Sequence record: OZ346222.1
Direction: 5' to 3' (one strand)
DNA from: a phage
Length of the DNA stretch: 64,000 nucleotides
Shown here in pieces: positions 5,924 to 20,907 of the stretch (position 1 is the first letter of the stretch; each line of letters starts with the position of its first letter). Under the pieces are notes generated by a model that was given only the letters and a program-made list of their open reading frames with translations, had not been told where the DNA came from and did not search any database. Both the position numbers and the translations under genes were made by a program.

Positions 5924-6190
5924 ATGAAACTAACTCAGTTTTTATGGGGACTGGTTGCGGCATCTGATGACCCTACGAAAGTATCCCAAACTAAGCTATG
6001 GTCGAACATAGGCATGGCGGTGATGACTGGGGTGTTTATTCATATGGGGTATAATGATACGCTTCCTGAATGGTATGCGTGGATATACGCGCCTTCAGTA
6101 GCTTGCCCCCAGCTTATTAGCAAATTCATCTCGCTCCGGTGGGGTTGCCAGCACCCTGACCACGTTAAAAACGAAGAGCAAAAAGCTTAA
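5924..6190 (+). CDS. small membrane protein (holin-like?)
   Basis: 88 aa with 2-3 hydrophobic segments and a charged C-terminus (KNEEQKA); location next to fiber genes; function inferred from topology only. Confidence 0.3.
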   Translation: MKLTQFLWGLVAASDDPTKVSQTKLWSNIGMAVMTGVFIHMGYNDTLPEWYAWIYAPSVACPQLISKFISLRWGCQHPDHVKNEEQKA

Positions 6191-6199
6191 GGAGAAATC

Positions 6200-7945
6200 A
6201 TGGCGCAAGACATGACAAGCTTTGAGCAGGCGGTAGATCAAGTAATTGTTGATTCTGAACGTTTGCACCTGATTGTCAACGGTAACGCTGTGGATGAAGT
6301 TGTCGTAGAGGATGGGACCACCATCCCTACGGTACGAAAAGCCATGCTTGACACCCTTTATTTTAAAACGCCACCGATCCCTTGGGCGTATGGTGCATCC
6401 ACAACAGTTTTTAACCAGCTGTACGAGTTTAAAGGGGACACAGGCCCTCAGTGGTGGTACGCTCCCGCAGCATCAAAATCTAACCCGGTTAGAATGCCAG
6501 CAGATCCTTCACAATCTCCAAACTGGAGATTATATACCGATTCTGCAGTAATGGCAAAATACTACGCAAAACTTAACAGTCCGAGGTTCGAAGGTGACCC
6601 GCGAGTACCTACGCCTCCAATGGACGACAAATCCGAGTCTATAGCAAACACAGAGTTTGTTGTTGACTATGTGGATAGCATATTTGAAGCCATGGAGGGA
6701 ATGAAAGTTACTGTAGGGTCTTTGGTGGTAAAAGGTCTTACAGAACTTGCTAACACTATAGTTGGTGGCACACTCACCTTACATGGGCCTGTTAATGGAG
6801 CAGATTCTACTGCACGCTTCAGGAACCTAATCCTCACGGCAAATACTTCTACACTTACTTTTGCGTGGAGTGATCCTAAGCATGCAGACTGGAGAAGCAC
6901 AGAGCTGCAACCTCATGAAGTGTCCACCCACAGGGTTATAGCTGACACTATAACTTCTGGGAAACCAGTGGCTAATAATAACGATGTGCATTTTGATGGT
7001 CTAGGTAATAACTTTTTTGACTACGTGTACATTCGTGGTAATGCCATGAAGGCAGCAACCGAACCGACATTGCAGGTAGATGGAACCACCAGGGTTAAGA
7101 ACCTTGAGGTGACAGGCACTGTTACAGGGATAACATACTCTGTCGATGGCACCATGATCTACCCTAGCTATATTGAAAGCACGGGTGATGCATTGATAAA
7201 TGGCGATTTGGAGGTTGGCGGGTCTGTAGTTATTCGAGGTACAGCCTCTATCCAAAATATAGCTCTGAATACTCTAAGAGTCAATGAGCGTGCAACTTTT
7301 GAAGGAGAAGGGCTTACAGCCAATAAAGGTACAATTACCGAGCTGACCACCACCACTTTAACTGCAACAACTGCAAACTCTGAAAACTGCAACATTACCA
7401 GAAACTTGCAGGTAAATGGAGATGTTAGTTTAAACGCCGCAGGGACTGGCACCACCTACCTTCACAATCTTGAAATATCCGGCACAGTGACCGGATGGCT
7501 GCCAGACTTCTCTAATGTCAACTTTGTCTGTAATGGCATTAACTCCAGTGGTAAGATAACCACCTCTCAAGAAATTGAGGCTGGTAAAACCATCACTGCC
7601 CCTACTTTCCACGCAGGAAAGGTAGATTTTGACTTAGAGGAGGTTGACGCGTCCAGTGGGACATGGACACCTAACGGGCAGGCCAGTATGTATGTTGTCC
7701 ACGCTAAAGGGGATTTTACAATAGGTCAGTGGCCTGGGACATCAGCGGAAGATAAACCTTATCCATTCACTGCAGTTATCTATGTCATTCAGGATGCTGT
7801 AGGTCACAACGTGACTTTGCACGATAAGTATGCTATCCTGTCGGCAACACCTGTTATTAACAACAGGGCTAACAGTGTTACCTTGCTGCAATTAACGTAT
7901 TGTGGTGTTGGTGATATTGTAGACGTAGTAATTGCACAACGTTAA
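6200..7945 (+). CDS. tail fiber / tailspike-like protein
   Basis: 581 aa; repeated G-T/S-rich beta-strand motifs (VTGTVTG, GDLEVGGSVVIRG, NLQVNGDVSLNAAGTG) typical of fibrous or beta-helical receptor-binding proteins; followed by hairpin terminator. Confidence 0.55.
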   Translation: MAQDMTSFEQAVDQVIVDSERLHLIVNGNAVDEVVVEDGTTIPTVRKAMLDTLYFKTPPIPWAYGASTTVFNQLYEFKGDTGPQWWYAPAASKSNPVRMPADPSQSPNWRLYTDSAVMAKYYAKLNSPRFEGDPRVPTPPMDDKSESIANTEFVVDYVDSIFEAMEGMKVTVGSLVVKGLTELANTIVGGTLTLHGPVNGADSTARFRNLILTANTSTLTFAWSDPKHADWRSTELQPHEVSTHRVIADTITSGKPVANNNDVHFDGLGNNFFDYVYIRGNAMKAATEPTLQVDGTTRVKNLEVTGTVTGITYSVDGTMIYPSYIESTGDALINGDLEVGGSVVIRGTASIQNIALNTLRVNERATFEGEGLTANKGTITELTTTTLTATTANSENCNITRNLQVNGDVSLNAAGTGTTYLHNLEISGTVTGWLPDFSNVNFVCNGINSSGKITTSQEIEAGKTITAPTFHAGKVDFDLEEVDASSGTWTPNGQASMYVVHAKGDFTIGQWPGTSAEDKPYPFTAVIYVIQDAVGHNVTLHDKYAILSATPVINNRANSVTLLQLTYCGVGDIVDVVIAQR

Positions 7946-16051: not shown

Positions 16052-16618
16052 TTATTCAAACTGCAATAGTAAGTCCACCACCGCGCTAGGTCTGTCAACA
16101 AATTCCCCAGGTCCACATGCCCACAGAGGGTATCCGTCTACATACCGCCAAATCCAACCTGCAGTGTGGAGTTCGAGCAGGGCAGTACCGTCCTTACTGT
16201 CAACCACTCTTTCCCACAGTGTTGGGCAGCGAAGCTTGAGAATCGGATCACCTCCCTTATACCCGTCCATGTAGATACCCATTGCAAAGTTCAGCATCAT
16301 CTTTTTGTGCACTGATCTCTTACTGAGGGTGCTCATCACTTCCTCTTTGTGAATGTTTGTAAGCTTCTCTTTGGCTACCCGCAGATCGTTGCAACCATTG
16401 TTCAGCAGATCTTCCAGACACTTGATCCGGAGGTCGTGAATGTCTTTGTCGTGTACCGTTGGCACAGGGTCGTAGCGGTATAGCACTGTTGATACAAGGT
16501 TGCTCGGGTGTGGGTCTGACAGCAACCCATAACCCCAATACTCTTCTGTATCTGAAAGGACAAGACACCCAATGTCTCTGTCAAGCTTTCCTGTGTTGTA
16601 AGCCACATTGACCGCCAT
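16052..16618 (-). CDS. hypothetical protein
   Basis: 188-aa ORF. Confidence 0.5.
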   Translation of the reverse strand: MAVNVAYNTGKLDRDIGCLVLSDTEEYWGYGLLSDPHPSNLVSTVLYRYDPVPTVHDKDIHDLRIKCLEDLLNNGCNDLRVAKEKLTNIHKEEVMSTLSKRSVHKKMMLNFAMGIYMDGYKGGDPILKLRCPTLWERVVDSKDGTALLELHTAGWIWRYVDGYPLWACGPGEFVDRPSAVVDLLLQFE

Positions 16619-16620
16619 GA

Positions 16621-16866
16621 CTATAGCTCCACTAGCAAAGTGCTTTCAAAGTGCCGTTCATGCAGACCGTTGTAAGGGACCACTTCCACAACACCATCAC
16701 GGACATACGGGGCCATCATAGTGGTATAATCTCCAAACGGGTTGGTATTGTCACTAACCACAACCACCTTCTGCCCTTCCTTGGCAGAGTGCCAAATAGA
16801 TCTACACTTCATCAGGTGTTCGAGAGCTCCAGGTAAAATTTTGTTACGTTCTTTACGGGTCTTCAT
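16621..16866 (-). CDS. hypothetical protein
   Basis: 81-aa ORF, overlaps neighbour by 4 nt. Confidence 0.45.
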   Translation of the reverse strand: MKTRKERNKILPGALEHLMKCRSIWHSAKEGQKVVVVSDNTNPFGDYTTMMAPYVRDGVVEVVPYNGLHERHFESTLLVEL

Positions 16867-17312
16867 AACAGATATAGCTCCTTATGAAAGTGGTCTTTTA
16901 ATTTCTCACTGAGAAACTTCTTGATACCTTCCTCTAAAGTGTTTTCGATGTAGTCCAGCTTAACTGCTTCGATGGACATATCATAGATTGCCAGCTCTAA
17001 GCTGTCAAGTCCCATCATAGCATGAACCATAAGATTTTCATCTTCAGATACATTCAGGGGACTTCCTATAACATCTGGAGGCAGAATAGTTTCCCAATTA
17101 TTCTGGGTGGTAGTTCTCCCGCCATCTACTTTACGGCGCAGTTCGAATGTGTTCTTAGTGTAGAACACTTCATAAGAAACGATACGACTGTCACTCTCAT
17201 AATAAACGAAGTTCAGGTAGGAGCCTAGCCGCAGTCGGCAAACTTCCACCCCAAACCATTGTTTCTTATAAGAATTCAGGCTAATGCTGTCGCATTCACG
17301 TTTGCTCAACAC
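16863..17312 (-). CDS. hypothetical protein
   Basis: 149-aa ORF. Confidence 0.5.
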   Translation of the reverse strand: MLSKRECDSISLNSYKKQWFGVEVCRLRLGSYLNFVYYESDSRIVSYEVFYTKNTFELRRKVDGGRTTTQNNWETILPPDVIGSPLNVSEDENLMVHAMMGLDSLELAIYDMSIEAVKLDYIENTLEEGIKKFLSEKLKDHFHKELYLL

Positions 17313-17564
17313 GGCTATCTCCTTTTTGTTAATCTTCGTAAATCAGGATTTCTGCTTTAGGTTTTCGTGCTTTCAGGTCCAGCTCTATCCAGTGCACCAT
17401 AGCTGTTTCAAGAAAAACAGCTTGGATGCATCCGTCCTCAGCGTGCCCCCACCAACATAACGAGATCTTCACCTTCGTCATCTGCATCACGAACATAAAG
17501 AATCTCTCCAGATTCGAAGTCTTTCACAACCTGATTGCTAGATAATTTTCGAATTTTTGCCATA

Positions 17565-17828
17565 TCAGAAACCCTCTAAAAAGCTCTTGTAGAAAACAAT
17601 CTCAGTATCCACACCAGTCACAATCTTGTCGTTCCTGATTTCATCGGTAAGATAGGTGTCAAAACGCAGAACCTGTGTGGTGTTGTCACACATCCACTCA
17701 GCTGTGACCATTGCGAAAATCTTAGCATCTTCATTATCTGGTGTGAATGTTACCACCTCACCGCACTTAAACTTTTCGATAGGCTGAGTGTTAGCTTTCG
17801 GTTCTGCGATAGTGATTTTTGTGGTCAT
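17565..17828 (-). CDS. small protein, tandem paralog 3 of 3
   Basis: 87 aa; same length and shared pattern (basic N-terminus, C/PG-x-VV core) as the two upstream copies; junction overlaps. Confidence 0.5.
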   Translation of the reverse strand: MTTKITIAEPKANTQPIEKFKCGEVVTFTPDNEDAKIFAMVTAEWMCDNTTQVLRFDTYLTDEIRNDKIVTGVDTEIVFYKSFLEGF

Positions 17829-18091
17829 TATTCTCCTCCTTCTTTTGAATAGCTTGTCTCTCCAAGGATGGTAATTTTGGTGTCAAGCTCTGTAACTTTC
17901 ATGTTTGGCGGCAGATCGTACAACTCATTATTTTCTAAATCGAACCCCCACACACAATGTTCTCCTGTTTTGACAATCATAACTATGTTTTGAATGCCGT
18001 CTCCGTCGCAACTTACCACGGTCCCACACGGAAAACTGTCTGCACGCTTTTTGTTCTTCACCTTAGAATTGAATACAATGCTGGTAGCCAT
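17828..18091 (-). CDS. small protein, tandem paralog 2 of 3
   Basis: 87 aa; FPCGTVVSCDGDG core; ATG overlaps neighbour stop. Confidence 0.5.
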   Translation of the reverse strand: MATSIVFNSKVKNKKRADSFPCGTVVSCDGDGIQNIVMIVKTGEHCVWGFDLENNELYDLPPNMKVTELDTKITILGETSYSKEGGE

Positions 18092-18354
18092 TATTGTTCC
18101 TCCACCATAACTTCGCCAAGAATTTCTATGCAGGCATCCATTTCTGTAACAACCAAACTGTGAGGTAGTTCTACAAACACCTTTCTGAACAGGTCAAATA
18201 CCCCAACATATATGTTTGCAGGATGTGATTTTACAACAAGTGCTGTATTCACATCCCCAAGTTCATCAACAAACATCACCACAGTGCCCGGAGCTACTGA
18301 GGACAGATACTTCTTAGTTTTACGGTTTGATGCAAATTTTAACTCTGTTGCCAT
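18091..18354 (-). CDS. small protein, tandem paralog 1 of 3
   Basis: 87 aa; VAPGTVVMFVDELGD core; ATG overlaps neighbour stop. Confidence 0.5.
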   Translation of the reverse strand: MATELKFASNRKTKKYLSSVAPGTVVMFVDELGDVNTALVVKSHPANIYVGVFDLFRKVFVELPHSLVVTEMDACIEILGEVMVEEQ

Positions 18355-18369
18355 AAATAACCTCCTCTC

Positions 18370-19851
18370 TTACTTAGCGTACTCGATTAATTCCACAGTT
18401 TTCCCAAAGCTCGGGATATAATTTTTATTATACCCCTCAGTGAGGACCCATAGAGTATCGTACTTTTTCCACTTGTTGTCAACAACCTTTTGTTCAAAGT
18501 TATGCTCAAAGTATAGGTCGGTCAGGACGATGACATCTTTTGCATTAGGTATGTTGGCATCCAGATACTCGAACACGCAAGCAGCTGTTGTGCCCCATGT
18601 TGAGTGGACCTCATAGTTGATCATCTCGTCTATGTTGCCGCGAGTGTATACTTTAACCTCTCCAACCTCAGTTGACCAACAGAACATTGTAACCTTAAAC
18701 TCTTTATACAGATTGCACAATCCGGTGATTTCATTGAACATTTTCTTTAAAGTTCTTTGAGAGATCGAGCCAGAAACGTCTAAAGCCACCACAATATCTA
18801 TAGTGTTTTCCGGATTACGACCAGGAACAATAACGTGCTGGTTCTTGTTTATAGCCCCAACTTTTCGCATTGTGCTGGTCAAAGACCCAGATCGGCGACC
18901 AGGTTTTCTGTAGGTCAGTTCGGCCTTTCTTTTAGACAACATACGTTGCTTAATGATGTCTATATAGTTGATTACAGGCTTACCTCTGTTCTTGACAAAC
19001 TCACGCACCGCCTCAGGGCAACGGCCTCCGGACGCTTGCATTGCTGCCTCCAGCATATCACCAGAGTCCTGCATGGCCTGATCTTTATCAGATTGGCTGA
19101 TTACAGGTTGTGGCTGATCATACCCCATAGCCTTTCCAAGATTATCACTGGTGCCACCGTTCCCACTCATGTGATCATCGGTTTGTCGCTTATCACTTTG
19201 AGAGTTCTCACCTTTACCGTTCTTACTTTTACCGTTATTCTGATCTCTTTGCTTATCAAGAACTGCATAAACGTTCTCAGCAATCCATCCATGAAACTTC
19301 ATGTCGCAGTAGCAGCTGGCTAAGAAGCCAAAAGGCTTACCTTTCATGAACGTAGTGCTTTTCCCCTTCGGGAAGAAAACACAAGGAGGTTTGCTAAAGT
19401 CAACCACAAGGCCTGTGTTGATAACGTGATCACAAGCAATATTGAACAGTTCCGGCTCAAAGCTTTTACCACGGACTAGGTGATCACAGATAATATGCCC
19501 CACCTCATGTGACAGAAGGAAGGCCACCTCTTTCACAGATTTTGGGGAATAGAAAACTTCAGCCATCTCAAACTGCTCGTCAGTTAGAGAAGCCTTAAGA
19601 ATAGCCTTGCGTTCATCAGCCAATCCCATAATGAACTCAGGACTGTAATAGATGCGTTTATGGTCGGTTGCCATGGTGGAGCACCATGTGTGGTTTTCTA
19701 CGAACTGCAACCCTGACAGTAGTGTGCCATAAAACGGCAGCTTTTCAAGGAGATACATACGTGCAGCCTGCAACATTCTCAGGGCATCATCTTTCTGCGA
19801 GGCAATGATTTCTGAACTTCTGCTATCCATTAAAACTCCAGAAGGGGCCAT
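18370..19851 (-). CDS. vWA-domain protein with N-terminal HExxH metallopeptidase-like domain
   Basis: 493 aa; HEVGHIICDH (HExxH) in the N-terminal half; VVALDVSGSI (DxSxS MIDAS motif) in the C-terminal half; architecture typical of VWA partners of MoxR-type ATPases. Confidence 0.65.
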   Translation of the reverse strand: MAPSGVLMDSRSSEIIASQKDDALRMLQAARMYLLEKLPFYGTLLSGLQFVENHTWCSTMATDHKRIYYSPEFIMGLADERKAILKASLTDEQFEMAEVFYSPKSVKEVAFLLSHEVGHIICDHLVRGKSFEPELFNIACDHVINTGLVVDFSKPPCVFFPKGKSTTFMKGKPFGFLASCYCDMKFHGWIAENVYAVLDKQRDQNNGKSKNGKGENSQSDKRQTDDHMSGNGGTSDNLGKAMGYDQPQPVISQSDKDQAMQDSGDMLEAAMQASGGRCPEAVREFVKNRGKPVINYIDIIKQRMLSKRKAELTYRKPGRRSGSLTSTMRKVGAINKNQHVIVPGRNPENTIDIVVALDVSGSISQRTLKKMFNEITGLCNLYKEFKVTMFCWSTEVGEVKVYTRGNIDEMINYEVHSTWGTTAACVFEYLDANIPNAKDVIVLTDLYFEHNFEQKVVDNKWKKYDTLWVLTEGYNKNYIPSFGKTVELIEYAK

Positions 19852-19863
19852 TGGCCCCTGTCA

Positions 19864-20907
19864 TTATTTAACGTGTTTGAAAATACCTGCCAACTCGGTC
19901 ATTGTCATGCGGGTGGTCTTCATAAGATCTGTCATAGCTTTCTCCATAATTGGAGATACTACCATAAAGTTTCCTTTAGTGAAACCTTTATTCCAGTCGG
20001 TCACCAACAGGGGTTTAAGTCCAGCTCCAAGACGTTCACCAGTTAAAGCACAGCATTTGCGAATATACGAACTCTTAAATTGGCTGAACGACAGATCAAC
20101 TTTCATACCTACATCGTAGAACGTTTGACAATAGAAAGTGTAAGCTTTGGCAATCTCAACATCATCAGGTAGTGCAGGAACCTCTTCTGTAAGCTCCTCT
20201 TCGACCTCCTGAGTCTCTTTTTCCTCTTCATGCACCTGTTGCGTCATTTCTTCAATCTCTTCTGTGATAGGCTCGTTTACAATGTCGGAAATGTGCTTCT
20301 TGGGTGCACGATAAGTAACTTTAGACATCGGTAGCATATCTTCCTCCTCTTCTTCGTCAAAGAGTGCTAGTTTATCCTCTTCCGTTCCATATTGCAAGAT
20401 GAAATCTTCAAAAGTATAATCACCTTTCAATTTCTCCATACGCTCTTCGCTCAGGTGGAGCATCATCTGCTGGACAATTTTTCGATCAGTTTCGTCTTTA
20501 ATCAAGACTGCAGTCTTTTTATCTACCAGACAGTCCTTTAGAGAGTTGCATCTCAATCCCACCACACAACAGTTATCAACCGCATAAGGACCTTCATCAT
20601 CTATCCGCTCCAGAGATGGGTAGAAAGGATTCCCCAGCCCGTTTTCATCTGTGTGCATGTCAAAAGGTATAAGGGTATAGTCGCATACTCCATCTCCTAA
20701 AAGTTTTTTACCAAATAGGAGATATTCTTCCCATGACAGGTCGAACTCTATATCTCGTTTCCGTGCGTTATTCTGTTTGCGTCTATATTTTTTGAGCAAG
20801 CGCTCTAACTCTTCTGGTGTATAATATTTTTCAAGATTCATGAGTCGTCTCTCGTGCTCTGTAAGTGAAGAAATCGTATCAATTGTCTCAACAGATGTCA
20901 ACATCAA
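19864..20907 (-). CDS. hypothetical protein with Glu-rich acidic central region
   Basis: 347 aa; acidic stretch (EEEKETQEVEEELTEEV); contains the PMSKVTYRA peptide shared with gene 22172..22528. Confidence 0.5.
   Translation of the reverse strand: MMLTSVETIDTISSLTEHERRLMNLEKYYTPEELERLLKKYRRKQNNARKRDIEFDLSWEEYLLFGKKLLGDGVCDYTLIPFDMHTDENGLGNPFYPSLERIDDEGPYAVDNCCVVGLRCNSLKDCLVDKKTAVLIKDETDRKIVQQMMLHLSEERMEKLKGDYTFEDFILQYGTEEDKLALFDEEEEEDMLPMSKVTYRAPKKHISDIVNEPITEEIEEMTQQVHEEEKETQEVEEELTEEVPALPDDVEIAKAYTFYCQTFYDVGMKVDLSFSQFKSSYIRKCCALTGERLGAGLKPLLVTDWNKGFTKGNFMVVSPIMEKAMTDLMKTTRMTMTELAGIFKHVK

Follow-up and report, generated by a model that had tools for sequence, protein, structure and literature searches.

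A tandem family of four small acidic proteins and a replaceable cassette slot in rV5-like phages of Escherichia coli

The locus and its genes

The stretch of phage DNA analysed here, referred to as the window, comprises 64,000 nucleotides of sequence record OZ346222.1. The genes under study, A to D, form an array within a block of some 15 small, closely spaced minus-strand genes, the counterpart of genes 11-26 of phage rV5. The coordinates of the array and its surroundings are given in Table 1. Escherichia phage HeinrichReichert (Bas58) shares 99.7% identity with the region, and in that phage the block adjoins a lateral tail-fibre gene. The relatives matched in GenBank amount to 118 records, almost all of which belong to Vequintavirus (rV5-like myoviruses of E. 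coli). The name 'Campylobacter phage ...' and the host C. jejuni are given in sixteen records, which are rV5-like coliphage genomes of 135-143 kb with the same locus and are likely mislabelled or contaminant isolates.

Table 1. Features of the array and its neighbourhood in the window.
Feature	Coordinates	Strand	Description
Gene A	18091..18354	-	87 aa; A-type, A/B/ORF14 clade (phrog_10698); array slot 1
Gene B	17828..18091	-	87 aa; B-type (phrog_10698); slot 2; start overlaps the stop of A (TAATG)
Gene C	17565..17828	-	87 aa; rV5 ORF15, phrog_12861; distant paralog, highly conserved
Gene D	17329..17563	-	rV5 ORF16, phrog_12046; 77 aa if intact; split here
GGGGG run	17446..17450	-	One-base insertion that frameshifts D; GGGG in relatives
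Replaceable cassette	17840..18339		A without its first 5 codons, plus B
Upstream neighbour, same operon	18370..19851	-	DUF2201_N metallopeptidase-like + VWA-like; not a family member
Downstream neighbour, ORF17-like	16863..17312	-	149 aa; context gene
Predicted sigma-70-like promoter	20873..20901	-	TTGACA, 17 nt, TG-extended TACGAT (consensus scan)

Genes A, B and C follow one another head to tail on the minus strand and are exactly 87 codons long each. This arrangement and the overlapping start/stop junctions were the core of a sequence-only reading of the window, and both are confirmed. The A/B and B/C junctions are TAATG, in which stop and start overlap by one base, and at the C/D junction (TGAtATG) one base lies between them. 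Such overlaps are frequent in phage operons. The equality of 87 codons is partly a coincidence, because the orthologs span 83 to 88 aa. Every gene has its own Shine-Dalgarno site (GAGGAGG, GGAGG, AGGAGG and GAGGG). All four proteins are acidic overall, with pI values of 4.5-5.0. The same reading had ascribed a basic N-terminus to all of them, which is true of A and B (net charge of +4 over the first 20 residues) and much less so of C and D (+1).

A strong promoter-like site precedes the Srd-like gene, the first of the operon, and this prediction is in line with the bidirectional promoters reported to lie between genes 10 and 11 of rV5 (PMC3606486). In rV5, the transcription unit of genes 11-26 has sigma-70 promoters, begins with the Srd-like anti-sigma gene and is set apart from the late structural genes 27-66 (PMC3606486). 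Within the array, a promoter and terminator scan gave nothing convincing beyond weak 9-10/12 matches. Judging from the promoter predictions, the array would be expressed early.

The product of the upstream neighbour matches Pfam families PF13203 (E=4e-28) and PF09967 (E=6e-11). Labels for this gene in GenBank and PHROGs are inconsistent and include 'HNH endonuclease', 'putative anti-sigma factor' and 'metallopeptidase'. In the rV5 record DQ832317 (2161-3070), the DUF2201 gene is annotated as two overlapping coding sequences, ORF12 of 441 aa and ORF13 of 81 aa; relatives have a single 486-aa gene, and the split is probably a frameshift in the old sequence. The downstream ORF17-like gene falls in phrog_6790, labelled 'tail protein', although rV5 gp17 has no virion mass-spectrometry evidence. 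It is only 62% identical in one lineage (L013) in which C and D are 95-98% identical.

Paralogy, cassette slot and constraint

By protein alignment, the paralogy of A and B is clear (37% identity, E=2.7e-12 by blastp; about 39% in a separate comparison), and C is a distant paralog of both, with only 25-32% identity to them. Against a profile of A, B and ORF14, the first gene of the rV5 array, C aligned end to end and collinearly over 79 columns (hhalign probability 90%, E=2e-6). On the family HMM it scored 18.9 bits, a score that none of 3000 shuffled sequences reached (maximum 10.9). The array had been called a tandem triplication, a term that suits the paralogy of the three genes and not their uniformity, given about 39% identity within the A/B pair and 25-32% between C and these two.

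Gene D, in the repaired form described below, matched the profile of A and B alone weakly (hhalign E=0.009; 5.2 bits, equalled by 23 of 3000 shuffles). Once C was included in the profile, it scored 16.5 bits over collinear residues 8-76, and 0 of 5000 shuffles rose above 12.1; the shuffle tests for both C and D were done by hmmsearch. Because of this result with the C-inclusive profile, repaired D is accepted as a genuine and very old fourth paralog. Pairwise and profile alignment thus place the similarity of all four proteins above chance, against the possibility that nothing beyond composition is shared.

The four proteins match PHROG HMMs end to end: A (7.6e-43) and B (4.8e-41) match phrog_10698, C matches phrog_12861 (8.8e-62) and repaired D matches phrog_12046 (5.1e-55). 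More than 100 genomes already list these genes, as hypothetical proteins under three separate PHROGs. What is new is that three PHROGs annotated without function are joined into one family, together with a putative fold assignment, the cassette boundaries and a shared frameshift allele. The HMM search of phage and defence databases that had been proposed for the array returned PHROGs 10698, 12861 and 12046, and 0 hits in PADLOC. Sequence searches of A-D in Pfam, NCBIfam, PADLOC and PDB gave nothing meaningful, and no characterised defence or anti-defence family was matched in PADLOC or PHROGs, the matching PHROGs being annotated without function.

No further member was found among 721 ORF segments of the window. 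An 81-aa ORF18-like gene (16621-16866) was rejected as a fifth member (hhalign E=0.38, with an HMM score no better than that of shuffles). A stop-to-stop frame at 6098-6472, non-coding in appearance, reached 8 bits (E=0.12 for that set) and was judged a chance match.

When the window is compared with rV5 DNA by blastn, it is 98% identical up to position 17839 and 96.5% identical from position 18340 onwards. Between these flanks, the 500 bp that hold A after codon 5 and all of B have no DNA similarity detectable by blastn to the 230 bp of rV5 ORF14, which places the breakpoints at 17839/17840 and 18339/18340. Among the GenBank records, this place is taken by A and B in 44 and by a lone ORF14-type gene in 74; pairwise identity among the A, B and ORF14 types is about 34-40%. 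A further lineage has A' (57% identical to A) and B' (63-70% identical to B), alongside a C with 98% and a D with 95% identity. Cassette alleles that are 34-63% identical thus sit between flanks that are 96-98% identical. In these comparisons, the A/B slot bears the signature of a replaceable accessory cassette beside two genus-core genes, C and D.

C is 99% identical to rV5 ORF15, with 20 synonymous differences and 1 non-synonymous difference (pN/pS about 0.01). The pN/pS of D is 0.12 (nomo vs FV3), and both proteins are 95-100% identical across lineages. By these substitution patterns, C and D are maintained genes under strong purifying selection. Selection to bind variable host targets, which had been suggested for the whole array, fits the slot with its one or two exchangeable genes but does not fit C and D.

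The family is small. A profile search of 5.8 billion clustered sequences recovered 23 clusters, the contigs of which all resemble rV5-like phages in size, and an exhaustive HMM scan of 1.84 billion representatives recovered 3 true representatives. The weak matches P0025 and P0026 of the exhaustive scan are long repeat proteins, leucine-rich-like and tandem-repeat, and were considered spurious. The C family counts 6 clusters and the D family 13. The array is kept in 118/118 GenBank genomes of the genus. In Seunavirus, Mydovirus and Certrevirus, the ORF17-like gene comes immediately after the DUF2201 gene, and the family HMMs found no member among the ORFs of the locus (best E=0.8). Since it is absent from the locus in these other genera of Vequintavirinae, the array is regarded as an insertion specific to Vequintavirus. 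One ORF14-type protein, P0024, is 62% identical to rV5 ORF14 and is encoded by a single gene on two short metagenome contigs (L014, L015; 1355-1606 each). It stands between an ORF of 211 aa and a cysteine-rich one of 143 aa, neither of them related to the rV5 locus, and therefore an ORF14-type gene also exists outside the array.

Functional information on homologs comes from the HIDEN-SEQ preprint, in which transposon insertions were mapped in Bas54, a Vequintavirus with the rV5-type arrangement (10.1101/2025.11.20.689424). The equivalents in Bas54 are bas54_0054 (ORF14-type), bas54_0053 (C) and bas54_0052 (D). All three were classed as 'Non-essential' on K-12, with 100%, 87% and 100% of TA sites hit, respectively. 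In the comparison with a clinical isolate, the log2FC values were +0.46, +0.33 and -1.32 (q=0.68 for the last), none of them significant (10.1101/2025.11.20.689424). This screen, the only functional one available, gave no phenotype for the homologs; its dispensability data apply to a single phage of the ORF14-type arrangement on two hosts.

Values for neighbouring genes in the clinical isolate are also available from that work (10.1101/2025.11.20.689424). The DUF2201 gene of Bas54 was depleted (log2FC -2.2, q=0.009), and the MoxR ATPase gene, with a log2FC of -7.2, was described by the authors as required against defence system DS-28. A MoxR ATPase is the usual partner of a DUF2201/VWA protein. 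The ORF17 ortholog had a log2FC of -2.28 (p=0.028, q=0.195). Sheet Data S6 in Extended Data Table 8 of the preprint bears the title 'K-12_vs_CFE303', but its logged command line and output name point to sample 311; the same numbers appear again further on in the file.

The split fourth gene

The short fourth relative noted earlier, an ORF of roughly 39 aa at about 17443-17563, is indeed a paralog but is not naturally short. It is the 41-aa 5' part (17438-17563) of the 77-aa gene D, whose remainder lies in the +1 frame from 17329 to about 17445; a 55-aa ORF in the +1 frame overlaps the end of the 41-aa ORF. In a DNA alignment with three relatives, the window has GGGGG at this point and the relatives have GGGG or AGGA. 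If one G is removed, the translation of D is 77 aa long and 100% identical to rV5 ORF16, and the extra G is the sole change in the gene. The 71-nt site as it stands in the window occurs in 0 of 118 GenBank records at an identity of at least 99%, the best among the matches listed being 70/71 with one gap. All 118 relatives have the in-frame GGGG version and an intact gene of 77-78 aa.

The 55-aa out-of-frame product corresponds to a single cluster, P0037, in a collection of 15 billion proteins. It is encoded on a Logan contig (L006, run ERR3378739) that has the same GGGGG. Over 5.9 kb, its alignment with the window has 120 mismatches and 25 gaps (2.5% overall). Near-identity of the two is confined to the stretch from about 16100 to 19000, in which A and B hold two synonymous SNPs, and the other genes of the 6-kb locus on the contig are all intact. 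In an exact-pattern scan, neither the version with four G nor the one with five turned up in IMG/VR, JGI metagenomes or GTDB genomes. Other frameshifted versions of array genes are present in raw assemblies (P0035, P0036, P0039 and P0045).

The extra G may be an error of reads or assembly at a homopolymer, in which case D is intact in the real phage. We hold this to be a serious possibility, though with somewhat less than an even chance. The break is located at a homopolymer, the five-G version is missing from all 118 curated GenBank genomes, D carries no secondary decay, and several other frameshift products of array genes come from raw assemblies. The error reading has to account for the same five-G run in the independent Logan assembly, which has two SNPs relative to the window inside the array and an overall difference of 2.5%, and in which the other genes of the locus are intact. 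Moreover, D is dispensable and null alleles would therefore be tolerated. The five-G version may accordingly be a real, recent null allele carried in a shared mosaic segment. Wild-type D would be regained exactly by a +1 slip on GGG-G, and a programmed +1 ribosomal frameshift was considered as well; it was rejected as unlikely because relatives have the in-frame version as a rule (118/118), the site is not conserved and just one other assembly has the five-G run.

Between 14600 and 20500, the window and the Logan contig are mosaic relatives, with differences of 2-20% per 250-bp bin outside the stretch of about 16100-19000. The pattern of identity suggests recent recombination among co-circulating rV5-like phages. 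On the minus strand at 20100-20350, inside the Srd-like gene (19864-20907), 56 differences including indels fall within 250 bp. This segment is the glutamate-rich linker of the Srd-like anti-sigma gene and forms a second local hot-spot of divergence.

Predicted fold, possible roles and known systems

Structure prediction suggests a common fold for A-D, that of small SH3/Tudor/Sm-like beta-barrel proteins; the models are of monomers and were built from shallow alignments of 8-10 sequences. The predicted fold has the five-stranded SH3-like barrel of the Tudor type, and in predicted-structure comparison the Tudor matches score equal to or above those of Sm/KOW type. No aromatic residue that could stand for the Tudor aromatic cage is found among the invariant columns of the A/B/ORF14 alignment. 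At sequence level, the Pfam models for Tudor, LSM, Hfq and KOW (PF00467) give no match to A-D at E values up to 1.

Our preferred reading, to which we give about an even chance, is that A-D constitute a tandem family particular to this genus, namely four acidic beta-barrel proteins of only 77-87 aa that serve as accessory binding proteins and are encoded in a sigma-70-driven, non-structural operon. The four proteins would act as stand-alone accessory binding modules directed against a host macromolecule, a competing element or part of a defence system. For the conserved C and D the target would be invariant, and for the exchangeable A/B/ORF14 slot it would vary among strains. The near-invariance of C and D counts against the binding-module reading, because it is not usual for arms-race genes. 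An arms-race role is put forward as a hypothesis, since Bas54 does not require its homologs on K-12 or in one clinical isolate. Taken as a whole, the array is neat but, as accessory-gene arrays of phages go, fairly ordinary.

The proteins could also form a hetero-oligomeric Sm/Hfq-like ring, or act as RNA- or DNA-binding barrels of the KOW/uL2/Sm kind that modulate host or phage RNA metabolism or translation, which we regard as unlikely on the whole. Its more specific form is very unlikely, namely that the four paralogs build such a ring, or compete with host Hfq or another small-barrel partner of RNA or of RNA polymerase or the ribosome, with specificity adjusted through the swappable A/B/ORF14 subunit. 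All four proteins are acidic, the absence of LSM, Hfq and KOW matches holds even at permissive E values, and the Tudor matches score as well as or better than the Sm-type ones. A copy number of three or four, one swappable gene and a D that is broken without further decay speak against an obligate ring of fixed stoichiometry, and the overlapping starts and stops lend the ring no particular weight, being ordinary in phage operons.

Two further readings would deny the proteins an accessory binding function. That they are virion or assembly proteins could be suspected from the 'tail protein' label of the ORF17-like neighbour and from the adjoining lateral tail-fibre gene in Bas58. This is extremely improbable, as rV5 gp14-16 have no structural annotation and no virion mass-spectrometry evidence (PMC3606486), the transcription unit lies apart from the late genes and transposon insertions in Bas54 were fully tolerated. 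It is quite unlikely that A-D are functionless or decaying duplicates, a selfish filler in which the frameshift of D marks the onset of decay. Such decay would agree with the dispensability of the Bas54 homologs, with the frameshifted D in the window and one other assembly, and with the further frameshifted versions P0035, P0036, P0039 and P0045. It conflicts with the strong purifying selection on C and D, with the retention of the array in every GenBank genome of the genus and with Shine-Dalgarno sites that are intact in all genes; within D itself, the extra G is unaccompanied by any other change.

The immediate significance of the locus is modest, as it concerns catalogued hypothetical proteins whose homologs have no phenotype. 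The union of three PHROGs into one family with a putative common fold provides a starting point for partner searches in rV5-like phages, a poorly understood group that finds use in phage therapy and food safety. According to HIDEN-SEQ, a host defence is countered by genes nearby in this part of the genome, those for the MoxR ATPase and the DUF2201/VWA protein. If the binding-module reading were true, the locus would be a compact natural experiment, with two near-invariant small-barrel proteins beside an exchanged slot in near-identical phages, and would imply one constant and one strain-variable host target. Were the Sm-like ring true instead, viruses would have an equivalent of the LSm paralog rings of eukaryotes.

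The known small beta-barrel domains (Tudor/royal, KOW, the uL2 C-terminal domain, EF-P domain I and Sm/Hfq) may resemble A-D in predicted fold and have no sequence-level relationship to them. Unlike Tudor, KOW and Sm domains, A-D are stand-alone and acidic, with an N-terminal strand extension and an acidic tail. Closer in size and predicted fold are uncharacterised phage proteins of about 75-90 aa in BFVD, such as those of Serratia phage Hera (A0A7T3N9D3) and Vibrio phage Thalassa (A0A2H5BHC0) and N4 Gp21. Foldseek likens their predicted structures to the family with E values of 1e-3 to 2e-2 and TM scores of 0.55-0.65, but sequence identity is only 10-22%, and any homology would be tentative.

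The nearest known system is the set of rV5 genes ORF14-16 (ABI79085-87), which occupy the same genome position, between the DUF2201 gene and ORF17. C and repaired D are 99% and 100% identical to ORF15 and ORF16, and A and B share the PHROG of ORF14. The arrangements differ in that rV5 has one gene (ORF14) where the window has A and B, each only about 40% identical to ORF14, and in that D is frameshifted in the window.

At the level of genome organisation, the array can be compared with the phage accessory regions of Silas et al. (10.1101/2023.04.06.535777), in which variable cassettes, often of counter-defence function, lie between conserved flanks. The main text of that study makes no mention of rV5-like phages. 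C and D are core-like within the genus and in this respect unlike the contents of accessory regions. The A/B slot resembles such regions in its sharp breakpoints, its one or two genes of three sequence types, its near-identical flanks and its small, non-essential genes.
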